NCBI GenBank assembly: GCA_030039865.1
Contig: JASHUS010000205.1
Span: 1-39,914 of the forward strand
Direction: 5' to 3'
From: Thermoplasmata archaeon
GTDB lineage: Archaea; Thermoplasmatota; Thermoplasmata; Lutacidiplasmatales; UBA184
Length of the DNA: 39,914 nt
Under the pieces are notes generated by a model. The model worked only from the letters and a program-made list of their open reading frames with translations, had not been told where the DNA came from and did no database searches. Positions 5,178 to 36,465 of this stretch are shown here, in pieces. Each line of letters opens with the position of its first letter. Position 1 is the stretch's first letter. The position numbers were made by a program, and so were the translations under genes.

Positions 5178-5289
5178 GCGGTCACCCCCGCGCGCCCGGA
5201 CGCGGCGCCCGAGCCGGGCCACGGCAGCATCGGCTCCGGCCCCATCGGCGGGCTCGGCATCGGCTGGCCCGGGGTGGTCGGCATCGCCC

Positions 5290-5544
5290 TCACTCCTCGA
5301 GAAGCTTCTCGAGCTTCTCGAACAGGGCCTCGGCTCCCTTCTCCTTCTTGCGGCCGCCTTCCCAGCGGGCGTTGACGATCTCCACCAGGACGTCGGCGAC
5401 CTTGTCCATCCACGGTCCCTCCTGTGCGTCGAACCGCTTCTTGATCTTCTCGCGGAGTAGCTCGTTGTACGCCCGATAGGCGGACCAGATCCACGGTCCG
5501 TAGTGGGGGTTCCCGTTTCCCGAGTCGTTCTCGTTCTCGCTCAT
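5290..5544 (-). CDS. Small charged hypothetical protein (84 aa)
   Basis: Clean ATG ORF, MSENENDSGNGNPHYGPWIWSAYRAYNELLREKIKKRF…LEKLLEE, predicted helical, with AAGGA upstream of the ATG. Same strand as the HtrA-like gene and 112 nt upstream of it. I recognise no family. Confidence 0.5.
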   Translation of the reverse strand: MSENENDSGNGNPHYGPWIWSAYRAYNELLREKIKKRFDAQEGPWMDKVADVLVEIVNARWEGGRKKEKGAEALFEKLEKLLEE

Positions 5545-5708
5545 GTTCGATCCTTGGAACTTGGTTCCGAGGAGTGTTACCCGGCGGCGGAGGATATTGA
5601 CCGGGTGGAACGTCGGCCGGTCACACGGGGCCGGTCGTGGCCGTCGGCTCGAGGAAGGAAGGGATCGCGGAGTCCGGCCCTCGTGGTTACGGTGCCGTAA
5701 CCGACGGG

Positions 5709-5714
5709 ATAAAT
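5709..5714 (+). promoter_or_regulatory. TATA-like box upstream of the wHTH regulator gene
   Basis: ATAAAT lies 24-29 nt upstream of the GTG at 5738. Confidence 0.35.
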
Positions 5715-5737
5715 CCCATCGCCCGCTCCGGCCGGTC

Positions 5738-6352
5738 GTGCCCGAGGAGCGGGAGGAGCCGTCGGCGTTCGCCTCGACTCGCCTGGACGACCGGGTCCTG
5801 GTCGCCCTGCAAGGGCTTCCCGGTCGGCTCGCGTTTAGCGGTCTCCGCCGTGTCCTGCACGCGCACCCGGAATCGCTGGCGCGGGCGCTTCGACGGCTGG
5901 AGCGTGAGGGTCTCGTCGAGCGCGTCGACGGCGGCTATCGCGCCCTGACCGGGTCGTCCGGCTCGCCAGCGGTGCTGTCGAACGACCTCCGAACGATCGC
6001 GGCGATCGATCTCCCCGGGGGTGCCTCTCCGGATTCGCTCCTCGCGAGACTGGCCGGGCACTGGTTCGGCTCCCTGCGATGGGTGGGGATCGTGGACCGG
6101 CCCGACGAGCGCTTGCTCGCTTGGGCCCGGCGCGACGGGTCCGATTACGTGCTCCTCGGGATCGATCGCGGCAAACTGCGCGTCTACGTCCCTTCGGGAC
6201 CGTCCAACGCCACGGCCGAAGCGGACGACGCAGCCTACGAGCTCCTGGTCCACGCGGTCGAGGCGTTGCGCCCGGCGCCGACTGCCAACGGCCCGGTGAC
6301 GTTCCTCTCGTTGGAACGCGACGACCGACCCCGCTGGCTCCCCGATAACTGA
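5738..6352 (+). CDS. Winged-helix (ArsR/MarR-like) transcription regulator with an uncharacterised C-terminal domain
   Basis: wHTH signature LAFSGLRRVLHAHPESLARALRRLEREGLVERVDGGYRAL. The track start (ATG 5543) overlaps the divergent gene and encodes Arg-rich junk. The in-frame GTG at 5738 lies 29 nt downstream of an ATAAAT box (5709-5714), consistent with a leaderless mRNA. The start remains uncertain. Confidence 0.55.
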   Translation: MPEEREEPSAFASTRLDDRVLVALQGLPGRLAFSGLRRVLHAHPESLARALRRLEREGLVERVDGGYRALTGSSGSPAVLSNDLRTIAAIDLPGGASPDSLLARLAGHWFGSLRWVGIVDRPDERLLAWARRDGSDYVLLGIDRGKLRVYVPSGPSNATAEADDAAYELLVHAVEALRPAPTANGPVTFLSLERDDRPRWLPDN

Positions 6353-7251: not shown

Positions 7252-8853
7252 ATGGACCTCCACCGCGTCCGGCGCCTCGCGGAGATCCTCGTCGCCTCGC
7301 AGCTCCGCTCCGGGCGAACGAACTCGAATCCGCGGAGCCTGTTCGGTCGGGGGTACTTCACGGCCCTCCTCGACGCCGGGCTGTTCCTCGTCACGTTCGG
7401 CCTCGCCTCGCTCGTCCTCCCCGCCCTCGGTCTCGGTTCCGCGGCCCTCGGAGCCACGCTCACGACGCTCGCGCCGCTCCTGCCGCTGGTCTCGGTCGCG
7501 GCCGTGCTCGTGGCGGGCGTCCTCTTCGAGCTCGTCACGACGGCGAAGTTCACGGGGAGCGACGCCGCGAACTGGCTCCCCCTCACGCCGACCGAGTACG
7601 TCGCCGCTTCCGCGAGCGCGATCGCGTACTCCTACTCGCCCGCGGTCGCGCTGATGCTCGGCGCGCTCCTCCCCGTCGCCCTCGCGGCGGGCCTCGTCGG
7701 GTACTACCTGCTCGCGGCGCTCCTGACGACCGTCGGACTCTTCGAGGGCGCGGTGCTCGTCGAGATGGTCCGGGCCGTCAGCCAGCGATCCACCTCGGTC
7801 GGGCTCGGCCGGCACGCGCGGCTCGCCCTCCTCCTGCGCGCGGCCCTCCTGGTGGTTCTGGTCCTCATCTTCGACCTCTCGTTCAACCCGGTGATCATCA
7901 TCGGCTTCGTCCACTCCTTCACGGCGGTGGAGTGGCTGACGTCCTCCGTCCCGCTCTTCTGGTCGACGCGGGCGCTCGCGGAGGGCGCGAGCGGCAACGC
8001 CCCCCTCGCGGCGGCGTTCGCGGTGGCCCAGATCGCGTTCGTCGGGCTGCTCGTCTACCTCGCGGGGCTCCTCCGGGCCCGGTTCTGGGTCCCGATCCCG
8101 CGGGAGACGGTCGAGGTCGGTCCGGCCGTGCGCTCGGGGCACCCGGTCCTCAGGCGGGTCGGGCTCAGCGGGCCCGAGGCCGCGATCGCCGCGAAGGATC
8201 TCCGCGGGTACGGCCGCCGCCGCGAGATGCTGTCGATGCTCGTCGTCCCGGTCGTCCTCGTGCTGCTCCTCGTGGTCGAGGGCTCGACGTTCGGGGAGGT
8301 CAGCGTCCTGCTCTGGGTCGGCTGGGTCGTCGGCTTCTACGCGCTGATCCTGTCGCTCACCTCGGTCGGTCAGGAGCGCCGTTCGCTGCAGTCGCTCTAC
8401 GCGTACCCGATCCGGGGGGTCAACATCCTGCGGGCGAAGGTCGCCTCCGTCCTCGTCATCGCCTACATCGCCGCGATCGCCCTGTCGATCTTCGCGGCGT
8501 GGCGCGTCCATCTCGCGCTCGGCGCGGGGCTCGCCTTCCTTGCGGCGTGCCTCATCGGCGCGACCGTGCTGACGTTCTGGGGGCTCGCGTTCGCGGCCCG
8601 GTTCTCCGACTTCCAGGACCGGCCGCGGCCGCAGTTCCTGCGTCCCGGCGCGATGGTGGGCGCGCTCGGCTCCGGGATGGTCCTCCTCTTCGCGATCCTC
8701 GGACCGACGGCGTTCGCGCTCGAAGGAGCGAGCGCGGGCGCGGCGGTCGGCCTCGCCGTCGCCGCCGGGGGCGCCGCGCTCGTCGGCGGCGCGCTCGCCG
8801 TCCATTGGGCCCGGACCGGCTTCGATCAGCTCTTCCGGCAGCTCCCGTTCTGA
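7252..8853 (+). CDS. Large polytopic permease partner of the ABC ATPase (putative ABC exporter family)
   Basis: 533 aa with at least 10 hydrophobic helices. Starts 6 nt after the ATPase stop. Confidence 0.75.
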   Translation: MDLHRVRRLAEILVASQLRSGRTNSNPRSLFGRGYFTALLDAGLFLVTFGLASLVLPALGLGSAALGATLTTLAPLLPLVSVAAVLVAGVLFELVTTAKFTGSDAANWLPLTPTEYVAASASAIAYSYSPAVALMLGALLPVALAAGLVGYYLLAALLTTVGLFEGAVLVEMVRAVSQRSTSVGLGRHARLALLLRAALLVVLVLIFDLSFNPVIIIGFVHSFTAVEWLTSSVPLFWSTRALAEGASGNAPLAAAFAVAQIAFVGLLVYLAGLLRARFWVPIPRETVEVGPAVRSGHPVLRRVGLSGPEAAIAAKDLRGYGRRREMLSMLVVPVVLVLLLVVEGSTFGEVSVLLWVGWVVGFYALILSLTSVGQERRSLQSLYAYPIRGVNILRAKVASVLVIAYIAAIALSIFAAWRVHLALGAGLAFLAACLIGATVLTFWGLAFAARFSDFQDRPRPQFLRPGAMVGALGSGMVLLFAILGPTAFALEGASAGAAVGLAVAAGGAALVGGALAVHWARTGFDQLFRQLPF

Positions 8854-8859
8854 GGCGTG

Positions 8860-10605
8860 CTACCAGCCCACCGGCGCGCCCTGGTTCTCGTGATCGAGCC
8901 ATCGCTGGAGCGGGGCGAAGTACTCCAGCAGCGCCGCCGCGTCCATGCGGCGCTCGCCCGTCGCGGCCTCGAGCGCGTCGGGCCACTCCCGGCGGCTGCC
9001 GAGCTCGAGCATGGACCGCAGACGTTCGCCGGCGGCGCGCGAGCCATGGATCGTCGCGCGGTGGAGCGGCCCGGAAGAACCCGCTGCGCGCACGAGGGCG
9101 CGGTGGAACTGGAACTCGAGGATGTGCGCGAGGAAGTAGCGCATGTACGGGGTCCCCGAGGCGACGTGGAACTTCGCGCCCGGGTCGAAGTCCGCCTCGC
9201 TTCGGCCGGGCGGCGGGGCGATCCCCTGGCGCTCGGTGCGCATCTCCCACCAGGTCCGGTTGTACCGCTCGGGGCCCACGTCGCCCGAGAAGACCCGCCA
9301 GCGCCATTCGTCCACGACGAGCCCGAACGGCAGGAAGGCGAGCTTCGCGAGCGCGCGGCGGAGCAGGTAGGGGATGTCATCGGTCGGTCCCGACGTCGCG
9401 TCGAGGAGGCCGATCGCCGTGAGGTACTCCGGCGTGACCGAGAGCGCGATCGTGTCGCCGATCGCCTCGTGAAAGCCGTCGTGCGCGCTCTCGCGGAAGA
9501 GGAACGGCTGGCGCGCGTAGGCCCGCTGGTAGAAGTTGTGGCCGAGCTCGTGGTGGACGACGAAGAAGTCCTCCTCGCTGATCTCAAGGCACATCTTGAG
9601 ACGAAGGTCGTCGGCGTAGTCGATGTCCCAGGCGCTCGCGTGGCAGACGACGTCGCGGCCGGGAGGGCGCACGAACATCGAGCGCTCCCAGAACGTCGCG
9701 GGCAGGGGCTCGAACCCGAGCGAGAGAAAGAATCGCTCCCCGTAGCGCACGAGCTCTTGCGGTGTGGTCTTCCGCTCGCGCAGCACCGCGCCGAGGTCCC
9801 AGCTCGGCCCTTCGGTGTCGGGCGCGAGGAGCGGGTAGATCCCGGCCCACGATTGGGCCCACATGTTTCCGAGCAAAAACGCGGGGATCGGTCCGGTGTC
9901 CGGAACGAGCTCGGGACCGTACCGGGCGCCAAGCCGCCGCCGGACATAAGCGTGGAGCGATCGGTAGAGAGGACGCACCTGGTCCCAGAGGCGCCCCGCC
10001 TCGCGGGCGAAGTCGTCCGCCGGCATGTCGTACTTCGCGCGCCAGAGGGCCCCGAGGTCCGGATAGTCGAGCTCGCGGGCGCCTCGATTGGCGAGCTCGA
10101 CGTACCGGGTGAAGTCGGAGCGCATCGGGCGGGCGATCGCGTGCCAGCCGCTCCAGGCCTCCTCGAGCGACGCCGGGTCCCGGCTCGTCTCCAGGATCCG
10201 CGAGAGTCCCTGCACATCGAGCGGCGCCGGGGATCCCCGAGGTTGGTAGCGCCCCCGGGCGTACAGGGCCTGCATCGCGCTCGACAGGCGGCTCAGCTCC
10301 TCGGCCTCGCCCGCGCCGGACGGCGCGATGAGCGTGAACGATCGGCGCAGCAGCTCGAGCTTGCGCGCGTCGACCGGACTCCGAGTTCGCCCTCGCAGGG
10401 CCGACGAACGCTTCGCGAGGTCCGTCGCCGCGGTCATCAGCCGGGCGGCCGCGAGCGAGGTGAGCTCCTCCGTGTCGGGTGTGATGAACGTGCAGTAGAT
10501 CCAGTCCGCGCGGTTCGCCTGGATCGACAGTTCGAGCAGGCTGCGCTCGGCCTGGTCGAGGAACTCGGCCGGATCCGCGGGTGGGACGTCGAGGGGTTCG
10601 CTCAA
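8860..10605 (-). CDS. Peptidase family M2 (angiotensin-converting-enzyme-like peptidyl-dipeptidase)
   Basis: 581 aa. Zinc motif [15 protein letters not shown] followed by [12 protein letters not shown], the ACE-type third-ligand Glu context. N-terminal [13 protein letters not shown] resembles ACE W.Y.TNIT. The start is TTG at 10605. No signal peptide. Confidence 0.85.
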
Positions 10606-10930: not shown

Positions 10931-11145
10931 GCGAGGGCGCCGAGCGATCGGGTCCGGTTCCGCCGGCCGCCCGATGGTCGCTCGGGGTACCCAACGTCTT
11001 GGGCTCGGGGAGTCCGCGGGGATACGGCATGCGGCCGAAGCTCTCCCCAGAGGCGGCCGCGGCGTTCGCCACGTACGTCGACTCGGCCCGCGCCCGCGCG
11101 GCGATCGAGGGGCGGACGCTGATCTACACGGTGCGCTGGAGCTAG
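10927..11145 (+). CDS. Possible small ORF (72 aa), unknown function
   Basis: Internal ATG of ORF 10876..11145: MSEGAERSG…MRPKLSPEAAAAFATYVDSARARAAIEGRTLIYTVRWS. High GC3. 4-nt start/stop overlap with the preceding small ORF, and 4-nt convergent overlap with rnhA. Confidence 0.3.
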   Translation: MSEGAERSGPVPPAARWSLGVPNVLGSGSPRGYGMRPKLSPEAAAAFATYVDSARARAAIEGRTLIYTVRWS

Positions 11146-11687
11146 GCCGGCCCGCGCGGCCGATCCTCGTCGGGCCCGGTCCCGCGCGATCTCTCGGATT
11201 CTTCGGCGCGGTCCCGTCCGCCGGAGGCGCGCGCCTCATCGAGGGCCTGCTTCGAGAGCGCGTCGGCCCGGGCGTTCTCCTCCCGGGGAATCCAGCGGAA
11301 GTCGACCCGAGCGAACGCCTTCGTGAGCGACCGCAGATGGTCGTGGTACGCCCGAAGATGGTCGGCCTTGACCTCGTACTCGCCGGTCATCTGCCGGACG
11401 ACCAGCTGGCTGTCCCCGAACAACTCCACCGGGCCCGTGTAGCCGTGCCGGGCCAACCACTCGAGCGCGCGGATCGCCGCGACGTACTCTGCGACGTTGT
11501 TCGTCGAATGCGCGGACCCCGGCGCCACCGCGAGCCCGCAGTCCTCGTGCAGGAACCCCGCCCCTTCGAGATGGTACCCGAACGTCGCGAGACCCCCGCC
11601 CCGCGGAGGCTCGCACGCGCCGTCGAAATGCGCGCGCACGGATCCCCCGAGCGACGCCACGCCCCGGGGGATCTCGCGGTCGTCCAT
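11142..11687 (-). CDS. rnhA: Ribonuclease HI (archaeal type 1 RNase H) with a charged C-terminal tail
   Basis: DEDD contexts FDGAC, NNVAEYVAAIRAL, GDSQLVVRQM and NARADALS. 181 aa. Confidence 0.85.
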   Translation of the reverse strand: MDDREIPRGVASLGGSVRAHFDGACEPPRGGGLATFGYHLEGAGFLHEDCGLAVAPGSAHSTNNVAEYVAAIRALEWLARHGYTGPVELFGDSQLVVRQMTGEYEVKADHLRAYHDHLRSLTKAFARVDFRWIPREENARADALSKQALDEARASGGRDRAEESERSRGTGPDEDRPRGPA

Positions 11688-12849: not shown

Positions 12850-13428
12850 TTACGCCGGCGCCGCGGCGAGGGGCACGCGCACCGTACGAAGCGCGGTCCC
12901 CCACGAGATGACCTGGTCGAGCACCGCCGTCAGTGACCTTTCCTTCAACGGGTCCGGCCGGAACGTGCGGAAGTTCTCGAAGTCGGTGAAGAGCGAGAAC
13001 GATACCTGGGCCCGGACGGTCGCGACCATCAGCTCGGCCATGACGAGCCGGAGGTTCTCGACCGCCCGGACGCCGCCCGCGCTCCCGTAGCTTACGAAGC
13101 CGGCGACCTTGTTGTTCCACTCCGCGTAGAGGAAGTCGATCGCGTTCTTGAGCGCCCCCGACGTACCGTGGTTGTACTCGGGCGTCACGAAGACGAAGGC
13201 GTCGAGCGACGCGATCTTCTGCGCCCAGGCCTTGGTGTGGTCCTGCGAGTACTTCCCCATCGACGGGAGCGCCGGCTCGTCGAGGTGCGGCAGCCGGTAG
13301 TCGAGCAGGTCAACGAGCTCGAACTCCGCGTCGGTGCGCTTCCGCGCGAGATCGTAGACCCAATTGGCCACCGAGGCACCCACGCGGCCTGGGCGCGTGC
13401 TGCCGATGATGATCCCGATACGGATCAT
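12850..13428 (-). CDS. NAD(P)H-dependent FMN reductase family flavoprotein
   Basis: MIRIGIIIGSTRPGRVG (GSxRxxS-type loop), TPEYNHGTSGALKNAIDFL. ATG at 13428 (cat 13426-13428). The track ORF begins at an upstream GTG at 13458. Confidence 0.85.
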   Translation of the reverse strand: MIRIGIIIGSTRPGRVGASVANWVYDLARKRTDAEFELVDLLDYRLPHLDEPALPSMGKYSQDHTKAWAQKIASLDAFVFVTPEYNHGTSGALKNAIDFLYAEWNNKVAGFVSYGSAGGVRAVENLRLVMAELMVATVRAQVSFSLFTDFENFRTFRPDPLKERSLTAVLDQVISWGTALRTVRVPLAAAPA

Positions 13429-13952: not shown

Positions 13953-15887
13953 CTAGTTGGATATGCCGTAGGATTTGCGGACCTTATGAAGCAGGTCCGC
14001 GAATCGAGGATCCGCCGCCATGTTTCGGTACGAGGGGTCTCGAAGTTCGCCGGCCCCCGCGACCTTGCGCTCAATCATGTCTTCCACGAAAGGAAAGAAA
14101 CGCTCCCGATCACCGATGAGCGCCATCGCATACGATACTTGGCCAATCTCACCCAGCGTCGCCGGCGAGTCACGGGCGGCGGCGAGGGCCAGAGTCTCAT
14201 CGATCAGTCGCGAAGCTTCCTCCTTGTTCCCGAGGTGCGCTTCGATCCGGGCCTGGACGCTCTTGTACCTCATCTCGTCCGGCTCTAGTCTTCGGATGGT
14301 TCGCAGATCCCGGTAGGCATCCTCTCGCCGTCCCTTCGTGGCGTTTAGCACGGCGCGGGCGAAGTAGGCCCAGGAGAGGGCGGGCTCCATTTCGATCAAC
14401 CGAGTCGTGGCCGCGAGACATTCGTCGTAGCGGTCCGCGAAGTAGTACGAGATCAGGAGAAACCACGTTCGAGACGATGGAAGCGGGTCCAACTCGTAGG
14501 CCCTCTTCGCCTCGTCGAGGGCTTCGTCCAGCCGACCCAGTCCCCGCAAGACATACCCGTACCGTTCATGGGCGTCGGCGTGACTCGGGTTCAGCGCGAG
14601 CGCCTTCTTGAGTTCGACTTCAGCGCCCGGGTAGTTGTCCCGCATCATCACGTTCGCCATGGCGACATGAGCCTCGGGCAATGTACCGTCGAGTTCGATG
14701 GCCCGCCGAGCGAGCGACTCGGCCCGTCCGTACCCCTCGTCCGGGTCGAGGTATCCTGCCGCTGCCAGATCGCGGTAACAATCGGCCAGCCCGGCAGTCG
14801 CCCGCGCCGACTCCGGATCGAGCTTCATCGCGTCCTCGTAGAGGACCTTGGCCTGTTCGGTGGCTTCCCGGCCGATCTTCGCCCACAAGGCGAGAGCTCG
14901 AAGGCAGAGGGCGTGAACTTCGGGACTTTCCGCCCGGCCCCCGACTCGAGGGGAGGGGAGCTTCAACGCTTCCGCAATCTTGCGCGCGATGTCGGACTGG
15001 GTCTCGAAGACGTCGTCCAGGCTCCCATCGTAGCTCTGTGACCAGAGATGGCTATCTCGCTCGGCGTCGATGAGTTGAACAGTGATTCGCACGCGGTTAC
15101 CGGACTTCCGAACGCTACCTTCGAGGAGTTTTCCGGCCTTCAGTTCGCGTCCGATCTCGGGCAGGCTCTTCGAAGACTGCTTGTACCTCATCGCGGAGGT
15201 CCGCGAGATCACGCTCAGACCGCCGATCCCGGACACCGCCGAAATGATCTCGTCCGTCATCCCGTCGGCGAAGTACTCGTCGCTGGCGGCGGGGCTGAAG
15301 TTGGCGAGGGGAAGAATCGCGATTCGATTCTGATCGACGGCGTACGGTACCGCGCCACCCCTTTCCGTCCACGGCATGACCACCTTGAACAATTCCGGGG
15401 GCGTGCTCACGTTCTTGAGTGGCTTCGGACCGAGGCTCGTCATGGGCAGTTCGAATTTGTTCTGGACCTGGTCGTAGACCTGCCGAGAGATACAGACCCC
15501 GCCGGCTTCTGCGAGCGGCTCGATCCGTGAGGCCACATTCACCGCGTCGCCCGAGATGTCGTCCGGGGTTCCCACCACGTCTCCGAGGTGCACCCCGACC
15601 CGGAGGAGCACCTGCCGCTCGGACGGCCGAGAGAAGTTCGCCTCGCGGCTCGTCCGCTGAATCTCGTAGGCGCACCGCACGGCCTCGAGCGCGTTCGGGA
15701 ACTCCACCAGGAAGCCGTCTCCCATCGTCTTGACTTCCCTCCCCCCGTGGCGCTCGAAAATCGGTCGAAGCATCGCGCGCTGTTCTCCAAGCAACTCGAG
15801 CGAGAGCGCTTCGTCGCGCTGACCGAGCGCCGTGAAGCCGACGATGTCGGTGAACATGATGGCGGAGAGACGACGGACCGACGCCAC
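13953..15887 (-). CDS. Class III adenylate/guanylate cyclase fused to a TolB-N-like domain and TPR repeats
   Basis: 644 aa. Cyclase homology domain with FTDIVGFT, KTMGDGFL and GDAVNVASRIE (metal Asp residues, Lys, Asn-Arg all present). This is followed by IAILPLANFS…YFADGMTDEIIS…LIDAERDSHLW, then repeated TPR-like helices. GTG start at 15887. The gene is visibly A/T-richer than its neighbours. Confidence 0.85.
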   Translation of the reverse strand: MASVRRLSAIMFTDIVGFTALGQRDEALSLELLGEQRAMLRPIFERHGGREVKTMGDGFLVEFPNALEAVRCAYEIQRTSREANFSRPSERQVLLRVGVHLGDVVGTPDDISGDAVNVASRIEPLAEAGGVCISRQVYDQVQNKFELPMTSLGPKPLKNVSTPPELFKVVMPWTERGGAVPYAVDQNRIAILPLANFSPAASDEYFADGMTDEIISAVSGIGGLSVISRTSAMRYKQSSKSLPEIGRELKAGKLLEGSVRKSGNRVRITVQLIDAERDSHLWSQSYDGSLDDVFETQSDIARKIAEALKLPSPRVGGRAESPEVHALCLRALALWAKIGREATEQAKVLYEDAMKLDPESARATAGLADCYRDLAAAGYLDPDEGYGRAESLARRAIELDGTLPEAHVAMANVMMRDNYPGAEVELKKALALNPSHADAHERYGYVLRGLGRLDEALDEAKRAYELDPLPSSRTWFLLISYYFADRYDECLAATTRLIEMEPALSWAYFARAVLNATKGRREDAYRDLRTIRRLEPDEMRYKSVQARIEAHLGNKEEASRLIDETLALAAARDSPATLGEIGQVSYAMALIGDRERFFPFVEDMIERKVAGAGELRDPSYRNMAADPRFADLLHKVRKSYGISN

Positions 15888-15998: not shown

Positions 15999-16012
15999 AG
16001 TGGACACGGGGG
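15999..16012. repeat. Exact 14-nt copy of the tRNA-Ala 3' end (att-like)
   Basis: AGTGGACACGGGGG at 15999..16012 equals 17150..17163 (two trailer nt plus the discriminator, acceptor 3' strand and T-stem 3' strand of tRNA-Ala, plus-strand reading). Confidence 0.7.
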
Positions 16013-16554: not shown

Positions 16555-17058
16555 CTAATGCGGAATCGACTGCCTGACCACCGCGACCGCTTCGCCTGAG
16601 ATAACGAACGATCTCGACCAAGACGGATGCTTCGGAGGATGATAGACCAAAACGTACCGTTGAGATACTTCGGATGCCTCGGTAGTCGAAGGCCCGGATA
16701 GAACCGAGACATTGGCCCAAGAAATCCGCAGATAGTGGTCTCGGAATAGATATCGACGGGCCAGAATGAGGCCGCCCGGGTCCGATCCTACGTGATGGGG
16801 AATGAGGTCAACAGCCGGATAGATCTCTAGACAGAACACCCAACCTACCACAGCGAGCAAGACGGTGAACGGAAGGATCGCGAACAGCCCTGGTCGCGCT
16901 GCGACCGCTAATCCGGCGCCGACAATCGCAAGATCCAACGCCCCAACCAGAATCCAGATCATTTTCCTCGTCTTCGGATAGTCGGCGTTGAGGGCTAAGG
17001 GGCCCGGCGCCTGACTCGCGACGGACTCGGTATCGGACGCGAAACTTGGCCGAGCCAT
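16555..17058 (-). CDS. Two-TM membrane protein with a roughly 100-aa C-terminal soluble domain (architecture reminiscent of bPH/DUF304 proteins)
   Basis: ATG at 17058 (MARPSFASD…) inside ORF 16555..17124. TM helices MIWILVGALDLAIVGAGLAVAA and LFAILPFTVLLAVVGWVFCLEIY. A/T-richer codon usage. Confidence 0.55.
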   Translation of the reverse strand: MARPSFASDTESVASQAPGPLALNADYPKTRKMIWILVGALDLAIVGAGLAVAARPGLFAILPFTVLLAVVGWVFCLEIYPAVDLIPHHVGSDPGGLILARRYLFRDHYLRISWANVSVLSGPSTTEASEVSQRYVLVYHPPKHPSWSRSFVISGEAVAVVRQSIPH

Positions 17059-17151
17059 GGTTAGATTCCGAGACGACCACGAGAGTGATTTCGGCCCCCG
17101 CCTCGACCAGAGCGAGAGCACCAAGTAATGGATTCGAACCCCCCGGGGAAG

Positions 17152-17223
17152 TGGACACGGGGGGATTTGAACCCCCGACCTCTGCTTTGCGAAAGCAGCG
17201 ATCTTCCGCTGATCTACGTGCCC
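17152..17223 (-). tRNA. tRNA-Ala (anticodon CGC), no intron, CCA not encoded
   Basis: Minus-strand read: GGGCACGTAGATCAGCGGAAGATCGCTGCTTTCGCAAAGCAGAGGTCGGGGGTTCAAATCCCCCCGTGTCCA. Acceptor GGGCACG/CGTGTCC with the G3:U70 Ala identity pair, anticodon loop TTCGCAA, T arm GGGGG-TTCAAAT-CCCCC. Confidence 0.95.
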
Positions 17224-27887: not shown

Positions 27888-28700
27888 TTAAAGGGATTCG
27901 CGCGGCGGGCCGGGCGGACGCGGGCCGCGGTACGCGGGGTTGCGCTCGATCGTCTCGATGACGGCTTCCGCGAGGGTGATCTCCCCGCGCAGGACCCGGT
28001 GCGCCGAGGTGCGCGAGATCGTCACCCGGCCGTCGCTGCCCTCGCGGCTCAGTCGCTGGAGGTTGGCGATCTCCCCCGGGGTGTACGACTCCGGGATCGG
28101 CTCCCGGACGACGAGCCCGCGGCCGCGGGCGATCTCGCGGGCGGCCGCGGCGTCGCGCGGGCGGCGTCGCCCCCGGGGCGTCGTGCCCTGCTCGTCGACG
28201 AGTTCGACCGTTCGCTGGTGAGCGAGGAGCGCGTTGACGATTCGATTCCGAGCCGGGGGGTCTCCTGTCCCGACGCGGAAGACGACGCGACGGGTCTCGA
28301 ACCGGTGGCGCAAGTGCTTCGCGAAGACGCCCGCAGCCTCGGGCGAGTCGAGGTTCCCCTGACCGATCACGGAGGCGCCGGCGAGGATCGCGTAGCCCGG
28401 CCGGGGACCGGGATCGATCCCGACGACGATCTCCTCCTCCGCCGAGCTCGGTCCGAGGGCGTGCTCCACCGCGGCGCCGAGCGCCCGTCGATCGATCCCT
28501 TCCGAGACGGCGATGACGTTCGAATGGGCGATCGAGGGAGCTTCCGCCGGTGACGTGAGCACGATGGCGACGCTCTCGGGGATCCGGTCCCCGGGAAAAA
28601 GGCTCACCGTGGGCCAGCGTCGGTCTCGGAGAAGTCCCGCCAGCTCGTGATAGAGCGACGGGTCCCGAGTGACGAGTGCGACCGACCGACGTGCCACCAT
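27888..28700 (-). CDS. Conserved-looking hypothetical protein with an RNase H-fold (RuvC/YqgF-like) central domain
   Basis: 270 aa. IVVGIDPGPRPGYAILAG… is the GIDPG signature of RuvC/YqgF-like folds. The C-terminal region is helix-turn-helix-like. The family assignment is tentative. Confidence 0.5.
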   Translation of the reverse strand: MVARRSVALVTRDPSLYHELAGLLRDRRWPTVSLFPGDRIPESVAIVLTSPAEAPSIAHSNVIAVSEGIDRRALGAAVEHALGPSSAEEEIVVGIDPGPRPGYAILAGASVIGQGNLDSPEAAGVFAKHLRHRFETRRVVFRVGTGDPPARNRIVNALLAHQRTVELVDEQGTTPRGRRRPRDAAAAREIARGRGLVVREPIPESYTPGEIANLQRLSREGSDGRVTISRTSAHRVLRGEITLAEAVIETIERNPAYRGPRPPGPPRESL

Positions 28701-29562: not shown

Positions 29563-29645
29563 GCCGGGGTGGCCGAGCGGCCAAAGGCGGCAGACTCAAG
29601 ATCTGCTCTCGCAGGAGTTCCCAGGTTCGAATCCTGGCCCCGGCA
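29563..29645 (+). tRNA. tRNA-Leu (anticodon CAA), long variable arm, CCA not encoded
   Basis: GCCGGGGTGGCCGAGCGGCCAAAGGCGGCAGACTCAAGATCTGCTCTCGCAGGAGTTCCCAGGTTCGAATCCTGGCCCCGGCA. Acceptor GCCGGGG/CCCCGGC, anticodon stem GCAGA/TCTGC with loop CTCAAGA, T arm CCAGG-TTCGAAT-CCTGG. Confidence 0.95.
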
Positions 29646-29738
29646 CATGAACCCTCCCCTGGGCGTCGCCGAACGGAATCCTTCCGGGGCCCTCGGCGCC
29701 CTCCGCGAGTTCGATCTTCGCTCGGGGAAGCATCGTCT

Positions 29739-30008
29739 CTAAAGTCCGTAGGCTTCGTCGTGGTGGGCCAATCTTAGCAAACGCACTACCTGTTGTTTGA
29801 GCAAAGGTTCGAAGAGCAGAACATACGATCCTGCGACGTGCACTCGGCGCACTCCTTGAAGGGGGGCATGCAGGGGCTTGTAATGGAGAGGGTTCCGGAG
29901 AATTTGGTCCACCTTGGTTTCGACAGCGCGTTTGAATCCGGCGTTGCGTGCGCAGAGCTTCCGGTAGTCACGCTCGAACTCAGGGGAGACCTCCAGGTCC
30001 CAGCTCAC
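29739..30008 (-). CDS. RelE/ParE-family type II toxin
   Basis: 89 aa. …PEFERDYRKL…ILRNPLHYKPLHAPLQGVRRVHVAGSYVLLFEP…VVRLLRLAHHDEAY follows the RelE/ParE pattern (NP…k.L.g.l.g..R.rvG.Yr….v.i..v.hR..aY). Confidence 0.8.
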   Translation of the reverse strand: MSWDLEVSPEFERDYRKLCARNAGFKRAVETKVDQILRNPLHYKPLHAPLQGVRRVHVAGSYVLLFEPLLKQQVVRLLRLAHHDEAYGL

Positions 30009-30241
30009 CGCGACTCACCAAAGACTTCGTTCAGGGATCGGATCTTCCGAAACTTACCCTTCCGGATCCGCTGGAGGTCTGCTGCGAAATCGGGCCGGAG
30101 GGCCGGGTCGAGGATTGTCTCCTCATAGGCGGCGACGATACTCTCGAGTGCCTCCGACTTGCCCTTGAGTCCGTCTCGGGCCTTGACCACATTGACGACG
30201 CGATTAGCGTGCTCCGAGAGCTCCACGACAGCCTTGGGCAT
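30005..30241 (-). CDS. Cognate antitoxin (DUF2683-like archaeal antitoxin)
   Basis: MPKAVVELSEHANRVVNVVKARDGLKGKSEALESIV…. Its stop overlaps the toxin start by 4 nt. ATG 30241 lies about 30-36 nt downstream of CTTATAT (minus strand, 30271-30277). The track ORF extends to 30292. Confidence 0.65.
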   Translation of the reverse strand: MPKAVVELSEHANRVVNVVKARDGLKGKSEALESIVAAYEETILDPALRPDFAADLQRIRKGKFRKIRSLNEVFGESR

Positions 30242-30270
30242 AATCCAACGTAACTCCATGTAACGTCGAG

Positions 30271-30277
30271 ATATAAG
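30271..30277 (-). promoter_or_regulatory. TATA box upstream of the antitoxin-toxin operon
   Basis: CTTATAT (minus strand) lies 30-36 nt upstream of the ATG at 30241. Confidence 0.4.
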
Positions 30278-30368
30278 AGCTATAGGTCCCACGTGCCGTG
30301 TCCAAGAGCGACTGCGGTTAGCGAGGAGATTTTCGCTCGAGTCACGTTCTCGGATTCGATCTTTCCTG

Positions 30369-30386
30369 CGAAGCCTGGCCCCGGCA
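30369..30386 (+). repeat. Direct repeat of the tRNA-Leu 3' end (att-like)
   Basis: CGAAGCCTGGCCCCGGCA versus CGAATCCTGGCCCCGGCA at 29628..29645 (T loop, T stem, acceptor 3' strand and discriminator). 17/18 identical, same orientation. Confidence 0.8.
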
Positions 30387-30438: not shown

Positions 30439-31362
30439 TCATCGCGGACCGGCGAGAAATCGTCCCACCGCCTCGGTCACCTGCTCGCGGCACGTGAAGA
30501 CCAAGTCGTCGTGGGTTCCCGGCAGGTTCACGATCTCCACGTTCCGGATCTCGCGCCGTATCCTCTCAATGGACTTTTCCCGCCACGGTGCGATGTACGT
30601 CCGATTCCATTCGAGATTCTCGGCGATCCAGCCCGGGTCACCGCGCTGGACGTCCTCGAACGACGCGGAGAATATCGCGAGTGCGGGCGCGCGGATCTTG
30701 GCATAGTCCCGGGGCTCGGCCATCGCCGCGACGAACGCGGGACGAATTCCCTCCCGAGCGATCATCCGAACGGTTCCGTCGGGCTGGATCTCGATGTCCT
30801 CTCGCATCCAGGCTTCGGTACGGCGCTGGTCCTCCACGCCGGGCAGCAAGGCGCGGGCGTACGATCGGAATGCGTCCCACGACGTCAACGCGCTCGCCGG
30901 CCACCCGGCCTGCAAGTGGGGCGGGAAGGCCCGGATCGCCGCGGCGAACTCGGGGTCGGCCATGTCGTACGCCGCATCCAAGTACACGACGCGGTCAACG
31001 CGCTCCGGGTACGTGCCCGCCAGGCGAGTGATCTCGTTGCCTCCCATGGAATGGCCCACGAGATGGGCGCGAGCGATCCCCAGTTCGTCCATGAGTCCAC
31101 GGAGGTCGTCGGTCAAGGTCTCCGTGTCGCACGGTTCCTTCGCTTCCGAACGACCGTGACCTCGCCGCGCGTACGCGACGACCCGAAAACGATCGGCGAA
31201 GACGGGGGCTAGGTCGTCGAAATAGTGGGGATTCTGGCCCGCCCCGTGAAGGAAGATCAGCGCGGGCCCGGAACCGCCCCAGTCGAGATAGTTCAACCGG
31301 ACGCCGTTGACGCTCGCGTAGCCCGTTTTGTGCGCGGCAGGATCGGACCAGACGTCCGGCAT
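30439..31362 (-). CDS. Alpha/beta-fold hydrolase
   Basis: ALIFLHGAGQ (oxyanion HG), nucleophile elbow GHSMGG, and a C-terminal GTHDD (His). ATG 31362 inside ORF 30439..31527, whose upstream 55 aa are Arg-rich. Confidence 0.85.
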   Translation of the reverse strand: MPDVWSDPAAHKTGYASVNGVRLNYLDWGGSGPALIFLHGAGQNPHYFDDLAPVFADRFRVVAYARRGHGRSEAKEPCDTETLTDDLRGLMDELGIARAHLVGHSMGGNEITRLAGTYPERVDRVVYLDAAYDMADPEFAAAIRAFPPHLQAGWPASALTSWDAFRSYARALLPGVEDQRRTEAWMREDIEIQPDGTVRMIAREGIRPAFVAAMAEPRDYAKIRAPALAIFSASFEDVQRGDPGWIAENLEWNRTYIAPWREKSIERIRREIRNVEIVNLPGTHDDLVFTCREQVTEAVGRFLAGPR

Positions 31363-31669
31363 CCTACGGGCTCCCGACAGCGTGGAACTGCGGGTTCGGT
31401 GGGAAGTCTCGCGTCCTCTCGAGGAATGATGCCTCGCCCGTCCCGGGGGCGCAAGACCATGACCGCGACGCGGCCCGAGCTTCGCGATCAGGATCCGCCC
31501 GGTCGCTCGGGGCCATCGAGTTCGCATCGGACCCGGACTTAAAGGGACTTTTCTCGCTCCTCACGGCACTGCGATTCTGGGACCGGCGACCGTGCGCCGA
31601 GGAACCGAGCCGCGCGCGCTGCGACGAGCGGGGGGGACGTGCACGTCTATCGCGGGCGGGCCCGCCGGA

Positions 31670-32086
31670 TCACCGGGGTATCCGCAGGGGTTCTCTCCCG
31701 AGAAACATCGTAGATCGATCGACGAAGCAGAACTTGTTCCCGAAGGGATCCTTGGCGTAGAACGAGCGCTCCCCCCAGGGCTGGATCTCGATCGGACTGA
31801 GGTCCTCGGCCCCGAGGTCCGTGGCCTTCCGATGAGCGGCCTCCAGGTTTCGGACGCCGAAGTAGATGTGATCCGGGTTGGGACCCAGATCGAAGTCGTC
31901 GGTATCCGCCCGGGGATCGAAGCACGCGAGGATGGTCCCGTCGCAGTCGAAGTAGTGACGCCCCGGGGTGACCCGCACGCCGGGCATTCCGAGGAGCTTC
32001 GCGTAGAACTTCGCGGCCCGGTCGATGTCCGTAACGGGAAGTATCACCCGGAAGAGTTTCGGAGTGTCGCGGGTGGATCGGCCCAT
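31670..32086 (-). CDS. VOC/glyoxalase-family protein
   Basis: 138 aa. FRVILPVTDIDRAAKFYAKLLG…HIYFGV…ERSFYAKDPFGNKFCFVD. Confidence 0.75.
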   Translation of the reverse strand: MGRSTRDTPKLFRVILPVTDIDRAAKFYAKLLGMPGVRVTPGRHYFDCDGTILACFDPRADTDDFDLGPNPDHIYFGVRNLEAAHRKATDLGAEDLSPIEIQPWGERSFYAKDPFGNKFCFVDRSTMFLGREPLRIPR

Positions 32087-33732: not shown

Positions 33733-36465
33733 ATGTCGGGCACGGACCTCCGTCCCTCGCAGGCCGGTGCCGAAGAATCGAGCATCCCGGTCTTCGAGCG
33801 GCCCCCGGCGCTCATCCAGTGGCTCGACGCGACCGAGGATTCGATCCGGCTGAGCCTCGCGAAGCTCCGACTGTTCGAGCGGATCTTCCTCCTGCGGCGC
33901 GACTGGATGACCCGCATCACGATGCTGATGCTGATCGCCGGCCTCCTCTGGGGCGCGGTCGGAGGGTTCGACGCCTTCGGGTTCCAGACGCAGGTGGTCG
34001 CGTACGCCACCGGTTCGGTCGTGCACCTGTCGAACGTCGAGATCTACTCGTCGGTCACGCTCCACGGCATCCGCGAGCTGTTCGGCTTCGCCCAGCAGCT
34101 CGAGATGGCCGCGCTCGGATTCCTCGTCGTCAACGCGCTCGGCCTTGTGCCCCGGCACAAGTGGACGCTCTACTCGACCGTCATCCTGCTCAACGGCTCG
34201 ATGCTCCTGATCCAGGGACCGATCTACTTCCTCCCGTTCAACGACAACTACTTCCCGGCGAGCGGATGGTACTTCCTCTCCCCGCTCGGGATCAACGGGC
34301 AGAGCGCGTACGTCGTCAGCCCGCTCTTCTTTCTCGGCTGGCTCGCGCTGTGCGCCGCGCTCTTCCTGTGGACCGCCTGGATGGTGATCCACCTGCGCGA
34401 TTGGTACCGGCAGCACCGCGCCGAGGCGCAGGGGCGGCGGTACCCGGTCTTCCTCTGGTTCGTCGTCGGCACGCTCGTCCTCGTGCCGCTGACGTACGGG
34501 CCGCTCGTCGTCTCGACCGCGTGGGACATCGGTAGCGCGTACGCGGGCTGGCCGATCAGCGCGCTCGCCAACCAGGTTATCTTCTGGATGTTCGGCCACA
34601 GCCTCGTCTACCTCCTCTTCCTCCTGCCGATCGTCGCCCTCTACGTCCTCATCCCGATCCTGGCGCGCCGGCCCCCCTACAGCTACCGCTGGGCGGTCGC
34701 GTCGGCGATCCTCTTCGTGCTCCTCACGCCGCTCCTAGGGCTCCACCACCTCTACCTCGCGCCCCTCCCGGCGTGGTCGACCTGGCTCACGATGGCGCTC
34801 TCGTTCGCCATCGCGCTACCGTCCGCGATCACGTTCTTCTCGGTCTGGATGACCGTGAAGGGCGTGCCCGCGGGGCAGTGGGAATGGAACGCGGTCGCGC
34901 TCTTCGCGCTCCTCGCCTTCGCGGGGGCGATCTTCGGCGGGCTCTCGGGCCCCGCCCTCGCCACGATCCCCTGGGACGTGGACGTGCACAACAGCCTGTT
35001 CGTGCTCGGCCACTTCCACGCCATGACGATCCTCGCGATCGCGGCCGGCGGGTACGCGCTCCTCTACGCGGTCTTCCCGATCCTCACCGGCCGGCAGTGG
35101 TTCTCCGCCTGGCTCGCGCGGCTCCACTTCCTCTTCACGGTCGTCGGCGGCGCGACGATCGTCGTCGCGTTCGAGGAGCTCGGCAGCCTCGGCGTCCTGC
35201 GCCGCGAGTTCATCCTCCCGCATCTCGCCGCGATCACGAGCTACCAGCTGATCCTCCTCGGCGGGATCGTCGTCATGCTGGGCGGCCAACTGTTCTTTGT
35301 CGCGAACGGCGCGCTCACCGTCTTCCGCGGGGAGCTCTACAGCGCCGCCGGGCTGTCGTTCGACGAAGCGATCCGGCGGGCCGCCCAGTCGACGGTGCCG
35401 AAGCGGCGCCGTCGGGTACCGATCGCCGACGTGCCGTTCGTCCGCCGGGTCTCCCGCGCCCGGCGCGAACGGATCGAGGCGGCCTGGGTCGGTACCGTCA
35501 TCGTGCTGCTCGCGGGCGTTCTCGCGGCGGCCACGCCGGGGGCGTTCGCGGTCGGGAACTCGATCAACGGCGACGCGGCCGACCCCGGCGTGAGCGAGTG
35601 GATCGATCTCCACGGCCAGCAGTACTACTGGAGCGCGACGGAGTCGGGCGCGGTCAACGGGACGTACGACAACGCGCTCGTCGTCTTCGCCGGCGCGTCG
35701 GTCGAGGTGAACCTCTCGGCGAGCGGGGCCACGCAGTCGCTCCTGATCCCGTTCCGGGACCAGGCGGTCGTCGACGTCCAGGCGGTCCCGGGCACGCCCT
35801 CGTACGCCTCGTTCACCGCTCCGAGCGTCGCTGGGGTGTACGGCGCCCCCGACGGCGAGTACGACGGGCCCTGGTTCGGCCAGGACGTCTCGGCGCTGAT
35901 CGTGCTGCCGACCGGCGCCGACACCGGTGCTTCCCTCGCCAGCTTCCAGTCGAACGGGGGCGGTGGGGACATCTACAATCCTCCCGTCCTCCCCGCCGCG
36001 ACGGCCGACCTCGTCGGGAATCCCGAAGGGCTGTTCAACGACTCTGTCCCCGGCCCGACGCTGTCGGCGAACGTGGTCGCCGGGGGCGGTCCGGTGTCGC
36101 TAGAGTGGACCGTGCCGCTCGACAGCATCGGCATCAACAACTATCTCGTCAACGTGACATCGAACAGCCCGAACGCGCAGCAGCAGTACGTTCTCCAACA
36201 CAACGGCACTCTTCCCTATCCCACGGGACTCTGGAGGATCGATCCGGCCCGCGGGCTCGCGCCCGTCAACGGCACGCTCGGTCCGCTCGTGATCGGGCGG
36301 AACGTCTCACTGAGCTCGGACCTCGTCCCGGGCGCGTACCTGTACGGGCTCCCGAGCCCGGTCGACTACTCGTACGACCCGGCGGGCGACTCCGGGCCGG
36401 GGGTCGGGATCCAGACGGGCGACGTGATGGGGCTCTGGGGGGTGCTGTGGGTGGGCGGGGCATGA
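33733..36465 (+). CDS. Heme-copper oxidase subunit I (B-family/ba3-like) fused to an extra TM helix and a roughly 305-aa Cys-free extracellular tail of cupredoxin-like domains
   Basis: 910 aa. Ligand contexts: TLHGIRELFGF (helix II His), FWMFGHSLVY (CuB His with the cross-link Tyr), GLHHLY (helix VII HH), VLGHFHAMT (helix X HxH). After helix XII comes a basic linker, then the TM helix AAWVGTVIVLLAGVLAAA, then the tail from about nt 35548. IDLHGQQYYWSA…VEVNLSASGATQSLLIPF…VPGTPSYASFTAPSVAGVYGA resembles the subunit II cupredoxin fold, but the CuA Cys/His/Met residues are absent. Confidence 0.85.
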   Translation: MSGTDLRPSQAGAEESSIPVFERPPALIQWLDATEDSIRLSLAKLRLFERIFLLRRDWMTRITMLMLIAGLLWGAVGGFDAFGFQTQVVAYATGSVVHLSNVEIYSSVTLHGIRELFGFAQQLEMAALGFLVVNALGLVPRHKWTLYSTVILLNGSMLLIQGPIYFLPFNDNYFPASGWYFLSPLGINGQSAYVVSPLFFLGWLALCAALFLWTAWMVIHLRDWYRQHRAEAQGRRYPVFLWFVVGTLVLVPLTYGPLVVSTAWDIGSAYAGWPISALANQVIFWMFGHSLVYLLFLLPIVALYVLIPILARRPPYSYRWAVASAILFVLLTPLLGLHHLYLAPLPAWSTWLTMALSFAIALPSAITFFSVWMTVKGVPAGQWEWNAVALFALLAFAGAIFGGLSGPALATIPWDVDVHNSLFVLGHFHAMTILAIAAGGYALLYAVFPILTGRQWFSAWLARLHFLFTVVGGATIVVAFEELGSLGVLRREFILPHLAAITSYQLILLGGIVVMLGGQLFFVANGALTVFRGELYSAAGLSFDEAIRRAAQSTVPKRRRRVPIADVPFVRRVSRARRERIEAAWVGTVIVLLAGVLAAATPGAFAVGNSINGDAADPGVSEWIDLHGQQYYWSATESGAVNGTYDNALVVFAGASVEVNLSASGATQSLLIPFRDQAVVDVQAVPGTPSYASFTAPSVAGVYGAPDGEYDGPWFGQDVSALIVLPTGADTGASLASFQSNGGGGDIYNPPVLPAATADLVGNPEGLFNDSVPGPTLSANVVAGGGPVSLEWTVPLDSIGINNYLVNVTSNSPNAQQQYVLQHNGTLPYPTGLWRIDPARGLAPVNGTLGPLVIGRNVSLSSDLVPGAYLYGLPSPVDYSYDPAGDSGPGVGIQTGDVMGLWGVLWVGGA

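Follow-up and report, generated by a model that had tools for sequence, protein, structure and literature searches.

A toxin–antitoxin cassette behind tRNA-Leu(CAA) of a Thermoplasmata archaeon is one unit of a recurrent tRNA-anchored array

Repeats of a tRNA end around foreign DNA are normally taken as the scars of a self-mobile element that carried its own integrase. What do such repeats mean when they enclose two small genes and no integrase is found nearby? This question is raised by a 39,914-nucleotide (nt) stretch of DNA from a Thermoplasmata archaeon (contig JASHUS010000205.1, positions 1 to 39,914, hereafter the window), in which the 3′ end of tRNA-Leu(CAA) is duplicated on the far side of a toxin–antitoxin cassette (29646–30386). 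An earlier note, made from the letters of the window, had read the two copies as left and right attachment sites (attL and attR), and had proposed that the cassette is either what survives of a decayed element or a minimal unit moved in trans. We found that the cassette is not an isolated relic but belongs, as one unit, to an array that recurs behind tRNA-Leu in Thermoplasmata: about ten uncultured archaeal species carry stacked one- or two-gene units, with a shared arm, a tRNA-derived core and no integrase nearby.

The repeat consists of the following features.

29563–29646, plus strand: intact tRNA-Leu(CAA) (ARAGORN; Rfam RF00005, 56.7 bits), whose 3′ end is the putative integration target (attB/attL side)
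29628–29645, plus strand: proximal repeat (attL) CGAATCCTGGCCCCGGCA, of which the last 13 nt (29633–29645, CCTGGCCCCGGCA) form the exactly shared core
30369–30386, plus strand: distal repeat (attR) CGAAGCCTGGCCCCGGCA, with the core at 30374–30386; homology to a related cassette at locus L061 stops here and the flank beyond is unrelated

The two copies agree at 17 of 18 positions, and at 13 of 13 in the core, on the same strand and with a spacing of 741 nt, as the earlier note had reported. When up to three mismatches were allowed, CGAATCCTGGCCCCGGCA and CGAAGCCTGGCCCCGGCA were the sole matches on either strand of the window. Shuffled controls gave a mean of 0.15 such matches and never reached two, and the base frequencies predict 4.7e-5 repeats with at least 17/18 identity per 10 kb of one strand. 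GC-rich DNA does yield many imperfect repeats of 15–20 nt, and several contigs break near the tRNA, as would be expected of a chance match or of an assembly artefact at a repeated tRNA sequence. Against these origins stand the approximately 5e-5 matches expected, the finding of the same architecture in independent assemblies (NCBI, ENA, JGI, and Logan) from about ten species, and a strong bias in orientation and position, so that we consider either of them extremely improbable. The bias was measured in 32 distinct related loci (494 kb), designated below by L-numbers, some with the suffix r, which had been picked via the glutamyl-tRNA synthetase (GluRS) or the toxin and not via the repeat. With at most one mismatch and tRNAs excluded, CCTGGCCCCGGCA was found 16 times downstream of the tRNA in its orientation, never downstream in the opposite orientation, never upstream in the same orientation, and once upstream in the opposite orientation. 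As the loci were picked independently of the repeat, these skewed counts indicate that the core is neither a common genomic word, a possibility that the earlier note had named as contrary to its own reading, nor a chance match. The tRNA-Leu(CAA) sequence itself is near-identical across 28 related loci (approximately 98–100% between species).

The end of the tRNA is also the point at which the relatives diverge. A GluRS-based scan of the species representatives of GTDB yielded 22 related Thermoplasmata loci with GluRS proteins 61–74% identical to that of the window. The upstream neighbours (Rpr2, a zinc-ribbon protein, the 270-residue protein h270, and GluRS) are conserved, with GluRS, h270, Rpr2, and tRNA-Leu(CAA) being syntenic in 22/22 of these loci, whereas synteny is lost directly 3′ of the tRNA in the 22 species. 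A radical-SAM/CCA-enzyme pair, which seems to represent the ancestral flank, lies at +0.8, +2.8, +7.3, or +7.9 kb behind the tRNA, depending on the species. For the two nearest relatives, L099r and L101r, found via h270 (GluRS 77–79% identical), the alignment stops at window positions 29645 and 29648. Beyond the last base of the tRNA, both are unrelated to the window and are devoid of the cassette and of the distal flank of the window, which was shared by no relative examined. Since the alignments break at the last base of the tRNA, its 3′ end is a sharp boundary of a hypervariable region.

The base composition changes at the same place. The GC content is 0.584 in 29646–30368, compared with 0.731 upstream and 0.665 downstream, and the GC content at third codon positions (GC3) is 0.64 and 0.75 for the toxin–antitoxin pair, compared with 0.86–0.94 for GluRS, h270, Rpr2, PhoU, and the heme-copper oxidase subunit I (COX1). 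The windowed GC and the codon usage thus both bear out the statement that the interval is A/T-richer than its flanks. The genome of the window is GC-rich (approximately 70%) and encodes the archaeal Rpr2 subunit of RNase P and an archaeal-type GluRS. The repeat that terminates at the tRNA 3′ end, the break of homology there, and the distinct composition of the interval all support the reading of the repeat pair as attL and attR, and nothing that the earlier note had listed as grounds for giving it up was found. The interval fits a tRNA-targeting integrative element: its far end repeats the 3′ part of the tRNA in direct orientation, and an intact tRNA is regenerated at the near end.

Just past the distal repeat, an alpha/beta hydrolase and a glyoxalase gene (30439–32086, minus strand) have an intermediate GC3 (0.81) and lack counterparts in all relatives, and no further core bounds them; these genes were probably acquired too.

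What lies between the two repeats is listed below.

29646–29738: left (Y) non-coding arm, 74% identical to the matching arm of the L061 cassette
29739–30008, minus strand: toxin gene of the RelE/ParE superfamily, 89 aa, GTG start (PF05016; TIGR02385; ratio of nonsynonymous to synonymous substitution rates, dN/dS, 0.08–0.16)
30005–30241, minus strand: antitoxin gene, 78 aa, ATG at 30241 (from the list of open reading frames, ORFs; called as 78 aa in all metagenome-assembled genomes)
30270–30277, minus strand: TATA box CTTATATC, putatively the cassette's own promoter, approximately 32 nt upstream of the antitoxin ATG
30293–30373: right (X) arm before the distal core, with the T-loop-like box CGGATTCGATC at 30351–30361; arm and promoter region are 78% identical to the L061 arm

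The toxin and the antitoxin are the only convincing genes between the repeat copies, in agreement with the earlier description of an overlapping antitoxin/RelE pair. The toxin matches PF05016 (ParE_toxin; E 2.7e-10, 41.1 bits with a cutoff of 23) and TIGR02385 (RelE/StbE; 31.1 bits with a cutoff of 27.9), and has no sequence match in the PDB. The antitoxin gives a weak match to DUF2683 (E 0.002) and is 67–94% identical to its relatives; its stop codon overlaps the GTG start of the toxin by 4 nt, and the pair is kept in all relatives. With a toxin above curated cutoffs and a coupled upstream antitoxin, the pair is a putative type II toxin–antitoxin system of the RelE/ParE superfamily. The low dN/dS values (0.08–0.16 for the toxin and approximately 0.09 for the antitoxin) indicate that both genes are under purifying selection. 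The TATA box noticed previously is present, and its block is kept in six of six aligned species; judging from archaeal promoter geometry, it is likely to be the promoter of the cassette, and the antitoxin mRNA would be nearly leaderless because the box lies so close to the ATG. The toxin has 206 homologues, the best 120 of which are 69–94% identical, those with a named source coming from Thermoplasmata or other archaea. A metagenome scan with the toxin gave two loci.

Is this arrangement peculiar to the window? Direct copies of the terminal 11–17 nt of the tRNA were also found downstream of tRNA-Leu in other genomes, at the following distances from its 3′ end.

L032: +2173, in the orientation of the tRNA, single unit
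L011: +3571, in the orientation of the tRNA, single unit
L014: +2011, +3898, +4692, and +4792, four copies
L057: +726, single unit
L065: +705, single unit
L054: +2093
L068/L069: +630 and +1427, with two different toxin–antitoxin cassettes in tandem in L069r
L061: +952, +1695, +3343, and +4249

The arrays, observed in about ten species, comprise one to four units of 0.1–3.6 kb, mostly with one or two genes. When the contexts of eight toxin homologues were examined, six were at the tRNA-Leu locus, and all six had distal cores. Profile searches revealed no extra degenerate sites, either further along the downstream part of the window or in the remaining 18 species selected via GluRS. All array units have a GC content of 0.56–0.66, compared with approximately 0.70–0.73 for the host genomes. 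To analyse the cargo, 150 ORFs in six frames were taken from all units (approximately 20 units from 10 organisms) and scanned with Pfam; 39 families were matched, 25 of them listed and the other 14 single-member. The cargo includes ParE/RelE toxins (10 ORFs), DUF2683 antitoxins, and Gp49/HigB-like toxins, together with several methyltransferases, Glyoxalase_6, RibD_C, DUF1801, an alpha/beta hydrolase, an FG-GAP repeat protein, and adenylate-cyclase/TPR proteins; a VapB unit in L061 was found in the precomputed annotation.

Some further observations concern these loci. In L101, the closest sampled relative, the first unit behind tRNA-Leu holds a HEPN(HepT)–MNT toxin–antitoxin pair (8017–8804) and ends with a degenerate core, GCCGGCCCCGGCA, at +1174 (L101r 12939–12951); the sequence following this core resembles that following the tRNA. 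A 725-nt segment spanning the methyltransferase gene of L014 unit 1 (ori 14426–15148) is 85.5% identical to L054r 5156–5880, from a different species, where no methyltransferase gene was called. A TnpB-like gene with a Cas12f1-like_TNB domain (L099 347–1543, minus strand) lies in the variable region, approximately 8 kb behind tRNA-Leu.

One array contains the cassette of the window itself. The 741-bp cassette, unit 1 behind the tRNA in the window, is 86.4% identical over 759 nt to the 743-bp unit 2 of L061r, and a multiple alignment shows homology from just behind the proximal core up to the distal core. On both sides, the neighbours are unrelated: on the left, the tRNA in the window and a unit with an 84-aa ORF in L061; on the right, the hydrolase gene in the window and a methyltransferase unit in L061. 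The similarity of the two loci is discordant. Rpr2 is only 51% identical, the lowest value among the relatives, whereas the toxin and the antitoxin are 91% and 94% identical, the highest values; the synonymous divergence (dS) of the pair is 0.31–0.36 to L061 compared with 1.0–1.9 to L057 and L054. This discordance between Rpr2 and the pair argues that the cassette moved as a unit, and the simplest reading of these comparisons would be that the minimal unit itself passed between lineages. The choice left by the earlier note, between a decayed element and a cassette mobilised in trans, thus leans to the second, as L061 has the same unit, identically bounded, at another place in its array. Decay would imply that larger integrase-bearing elements (proviruses or plasmids) had repeatedly integrated at tRNA-Leu(CAA) and, by internal deletion of the integrase and of most other genes, shrunk to immobile att-flanked remnants, kept vertically, with the toxin–antitoxin pairs retained as addictive. 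The identical boundaries of the toxin–antitoxin unit at different array positions do not favour such a history. In addition, a cassette that is far closer between the window and L061 than the adjoining host gene would still require the transfer of an already minimal unit.

A homologous RelE/antitoxin pair was also observed at L064, a locus with a GluRS only 36% identical and no tRNA nearby. There, it lies between 30-nt direct repeats of a different sequence (665–694 and 1488–1517; 83% identical, 823 bp apart) that contain the palindrome GCCTGAATCCAGGC, which suggests that the toxin–antitoxin pair travels as a repeat-bounded unit of approximately 0.8 kb.

The sites between the units hold more than the core. 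The right (X) arms, which occupy 90–170 nt before the cores, fall into sequence families common to units with unrelated cargo from different organisms. Those of L032 (cyclase), L061 unit 3 (methyltransferase), and L061 unit 4 (VapB) are 79–85% identical over 89–104 nt, those of L014 units 1, 2, and 4 approximately 71%, and those of L011 and L014 unit 3 73% over 170 nt. The first seven sites were used to build a profile, which matched the L061 sites with E values of 1e-12 to 1e-4, the matches extending over the arm, and an arm-only profile, from which the core had been removed, matched solely positions directly before cores at independent loci. Most arms contain a T-loop-like box (TTCGAA-like) 9–14 nt before the core. 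The left (Y) arm is short, and merely 10–25 nt or so show resemblance. A unit is thus laid out as a short left arm, cargo, a long right arm, and a core.

Other kinds of site were considered. Integron attC sites were rejected, as neither a hairpin nor a GTTRRRY core is present at the inter-unit sites: RNAalifold gave no consensus structure for eight of them (two trivial pairs), and for 16 units the terminal 120 nt gave folding z-scores (−1.9 to +1.6, both strands) no better than those of shuffled sequences. An Rfam scan of the arms and the locus returned the tRNA only. Transposon or casposon ends were also rejected, since terminal inverted repeats were absent from 14 units, with scores equal to those of shuffled controls, and neither Cas1 nor a transposase family turned up in the units.

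These results bear on the idea that the units moved without a site-specific recombinase, either by homologous or microhomology exchange anchored on the tRNA and the cores, or as casposon-derived or MITE-like (miniature inverted-repeat) transposons that duplicate their target. Casposons insert at tRNA 3′ ends and leave target duplications of 14–15 bp, to which the repeat of 13–18 nt comes near, and a tRNA so nearly identical between species would be a usable homology anchor. The missing inverted repeats and transposition genes speak against the transposon variant. As for exchange, the cores are always in the orientation of the tRNA, the conserved right arms beside every core imply a recognised site larger than a microhomology, and the tRNA was not the anchor for unit 2 of L061, because this unit is not adjacent to it. 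We therefore judge movement without a site-specific recombinase to be improbable.

Where, then, is the recombinase? As the earlier note had stated, no integrase accompanies the cassette: none was found in the 741-bp unit, in the window ORFs scanned, or in the related units. No Pfam integrase family, including PF00589-type proteins, was detected in any convincing window ORF scanned or among the called genes across 19.6–39.9 kb. The same was true of the called genes in 6–10 kb around tRNA-Leu in the relatives (precomputed Pfam annotation) and of the concatenated downstream ORFs (approximately 8 kb) of eight further relatives. Among the 25 of 39 families listed for the unit ORFs, there was no integrase, transposase, Cas1, replication, or virion family; the ORFs match only cargo families, and no leftover structural or transfer genes were found. 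An integrase split in two by integration, as in the SSV (Sulfolobus spindle-shaped virus) type, was also absent: the junction arms of 94 nt and 81 nt hold no integrase-like ORF, and the frame across the core reads MPGPGT-stop. In IMG/VR, the toxin had no relative, pattern scans with the tRNA end and the core brought up nothing beyond chance matches to the core or an unrelated tRNA cluster of a jumbo phage, and no related virus or plasmid was found.

The protein h270 (27888–28700, minus strand, 270 aa) was considered as a candidate recombinase, as its gene is the neighbour of GluRS in all relatives. Of its 505 homologues, the best 120 are 66–85% identical, and it has no Pfam, NCBIfam, or PDB sequence match. 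A Foldseek search with its AlphaFold model (pLDDT 80.5) gave no significant match (best E 0.016), with weak receiver-like and RNase-H-like resemblance that included the IS621 recombinase (E 0.04, TM approximately 0.28). A role in recombination is supported neither by sequence nor by Foldseek matches, and the candidate was dropped.

Taken together, we favour, with moderate confidence, a discrete att-bounded toxin–antitoxin cassette inserted by site-specific recombination, belonging to a class of minimal cassettes mobilised in trans. The core equals the tRNA end, the tRNA is regenerated, the copies are co-oriented, and the arms are specific to the inserted side, all of which make up the signature of site-specific recombination. 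Such a geometry is established for tyrosine integrases that target tRNA genes, and we infer that it applies to the present locus, so that tyrosine-recombinase chemistry would be expected. The segment 29646–30386 would be a self-promoted cassette inserted at the 3′ end of tRNA-Leu(CAA), and the repeat of 13–18 nt would represent the duplicated crossover core. A circular donor with an arm–core–arm site would recombine conservatively with the attB site in the tRNA; the proximal copy of the core would complete the tRNA, and the distal copy would join the right arm to the sequence formerly behind it. The predicted circle junction is ...AGTCACGTTCTCGGATTCGATCTTTCCTGCGAAGCCTGGCCCCGGCA joined to CATGAACCCTCCCCTGGGCGTCGCC..., and the predicted empty-site junction is ...CGCAGGAGTTCCCAGGTTCGAATCCTGGCCCCGGCA joined to TGCGGACGGCGAACCGAACGGAGTTG.... 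The tRNA-Leu gene would act as a hotspot of gene capture, behind which small units pile up after insertion at the tRNA or at an existing core, with occasional excision and exchange between lineages. Since no unit encodes a recombinase, the enzyme would have to act in trans, and its gene might lie elsewhere in the genome or be carried by a transient element. The toxin–antitoxin pair would be a self-stabilising passenger, which may persist because it is addictive and may also stabilise the array.

Several observations weigh against cassettes that are mobile in this way. No empty site, in which the tRNA would be followed directly by the hydrolase gene, was seen among the same-species contigs obtained by exact-protein look-ups of the toxin, the hydrolase, and Rpr2, since all of these 18–22 contigs carry the insert, and no excised circle was seen. 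In L057, L065, and L054, the cassette is approximately as divergent as its flanks (70–73% and 68–74%), so that long vertical residence, as opposed to frequent movement, is also part of the history. Distal cores occur within 8 kb in only 4 of the 22 GluRS-selected species, and many distal cores have one or two mismatches, as expected of disused sites. The matches of the arm-only profile are individually marginal (E 0.03–0.4). The searches, which covered the window and the related loci, identified no recombinase, and a weak integrase fragment in the units may be conceivable, as 25 of the 39 matched families were listed.

The equal divergence of cassette and flanks in three species, the degenerate distal cores, and the uniform same-species contigs are what accretion and decay of larger elements would leave behind. 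Integrase-less elements and tandem integration are documented in archaea (PMC8371274), and comparable remnants, the cis-mobilisable elements (CIMEs), in bacteria (PMC5704250), while the common right arms might just as well represent conserved attP arms from a single family of large elements. However, no integrase or fragment of one was found in approximately 20 units from 10 organisms or in the flanking DNA, and the units retain no replication, structural, or transfer genes. With the transfer evidence from L061 added, we regard accretion and decay as a serious but lesser possibility, and retain the trans-mobilised cassette as our preferred interpretation. A wider proposal, that soil and peat Thermoplasmata maintain a tRNA-anchored capture platform, comparable to an integron yet different in mechanism, on which circularisable cassettes made up of cargo, an arm of approximately 100 nt, and the 13-nt core are inserted, stacked, and exchanged between species by a recombinase acting in trans and stabilised by toxin–antitoxin pairs, perhaps with tRNA-Ala used likewise, is put forward tentatively, and we think it rather unlikely to hold in full.

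A second tRNA of the window shows a similar arrangement. The last 13 nt of tRNA-Ala(CGC) (17151–17223, minus strand), CCCCCGTGTCCAC, recur in the same orientation at 16012–16000 (blastn-short E 0.017), and the two copies enclose one ORF of low GC3 with no family match (16555–17124). The gene next to this interval (13953–15887) encodes an adenylate-cyclase/TPR protein with homologues among the cargo that the tRNA-Leu units of L032 and L011 carry, and the GC content is 0.58–0.65 across 13.5–17.1 kb.

Other genes of the window are also of note. The COX1 gene (33733–36465, plus strand), followed by a small ORF, lies inside the variable region behind tRNA-Leu. Its product is only 52–53% identical to COX1 of the two nearest relatives (L099 16932–19664; L101 16942–19671), in which the gene has Ribo_biogen_C and Metallophos genes on its two sides; the corresponding position of the window is empty, which suggests a replacement or relocation by a divergent copy. 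A full-length Peptidase_M2 of the angiotensin-converting-enzyme family is encoded at 8860–10605 (minus strand; E 4.5e-200 across the whole profile); its GC3 of 0.91 is native-like, and the family is an unusual one to find in an archaeon. A stand-alone RNase H/RVT_3 (reverse-transcriptase-like RNase H) domain protein is encoded at 11142–11687 (minus strand).

If the units are still mobilised in trans, the locus would represent a compact archaeal gene-capture system, integron-like but built on a tRNA attachment site. It would add a route for the flow of accessory genes in a poorly known, environmentally abundant lineage, and would offer a small defined recombination site of approximately 120 nt together with a means of tracing the recombinase that acts on it. 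Should the units be dead remnants, the locus would show an extreme stripping of integrated elements, with toxin–antitoxin pairs as the surviving pieces. No published description of tRNA-anchored mini-cassette arrays was found, a weak negative given the limited literature covered.

Among classical archaeal elements, those of the SSV type and of the pNOB8/pTN3 type likewise integrate in the 3′ part of a tRNA gene, regenerate the tRNA, leave a repeat at the far junction, and form an insert of lower GC, but, in contrast to the units described here, they have their own integrase, split in two at the junctions in the SSV type. The toxin–antitoxin pair resembles the RelE/ParE modules of mobile elements and of Vibrio superintegrons in its antitoxin-first operon, 4-nt overlap, own promoter, RelE/StbE toxin, and purifying selection. 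It departs from typical modules in that its antitoxin has a weak DUF2683 match only, and in that the family is almost confined to Thermoplasmata, with six of eight sampled members at tRNA-Leu.

Integrative mobile elements that exploit Xer (IMEXs), such as CTX-phi and TLC-phi at dif, are integrase-less, are often in tandem at a single site, and use a host tyrosine recombinase in trans (PMC5357621, PMC6744903). Unlike the tRNA-Leu units, they target dif instead of a tRNA 3′ end, and are phages or satellites and not one-gene cassettes. An involvement of the archaeal XerA would be pure speculation, its sole basis being the palindromic T-arm beside the core.

Integron cassette arrays, chromosomal and archaeal ones among them, include clusters without an adjacent integrase (CALINs) and self-promoted toxin–antitoxin cassettes (PMC9668308). 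The tRNA-Leu arrays are similar in having ordered, small, mostly single-gene units at one anchor, each ending in a site of approximately 100 nt common to unrelated cargo, and in a cargo rich in toxin–antitoxin pairs, methyltransferases, glyoxalase, RibD_C, and DUF1801; this likeness is architectural only. They differ from integrons in that neither an attC hairpin, a GTTRRRY core, nor IntI was found, the core derives from a tRNA 3′ end, a tRNA gene serves as anchor instead of an attI site beside intI, and the orientation of the cargo is mixed.

The functionally closest known systems are the CIMEs of Streptococcus and other bacteria, with their tandem accretion at tRNA or other att sites, and the archaeal integrase-less elements. 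CIMEs are flanked by attL and attR, lack integrase and transfer genes, stand in tandem with other units, and can be mobilised by the recombinase of another element (PMC5704250); in archaea, integrated elements that lack an integrase have been described, as has integration in tandem at one locus (PMC8371274). The tRNA-Leu units share with both the att copies of the 3′ end of a target gene, the lack of integrase and transfer genes, and the tandem arrangement, and they too could be mobilised by a recombinase from another element. CIMEs are recognisable deletion derivatives of integrative and conjugative or integrative and mobilisable elements, usually beside a functional relative, whereas approximately 30 loci (neighbourhoods of 6–10 kb) of the present type revealed neither a parental element nor an integrase, be it a remnant or a co-resident one. 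The tRNA-Leu units are also far smaller (0.1–3.6 kb), and their architecture recurs across about ten species.

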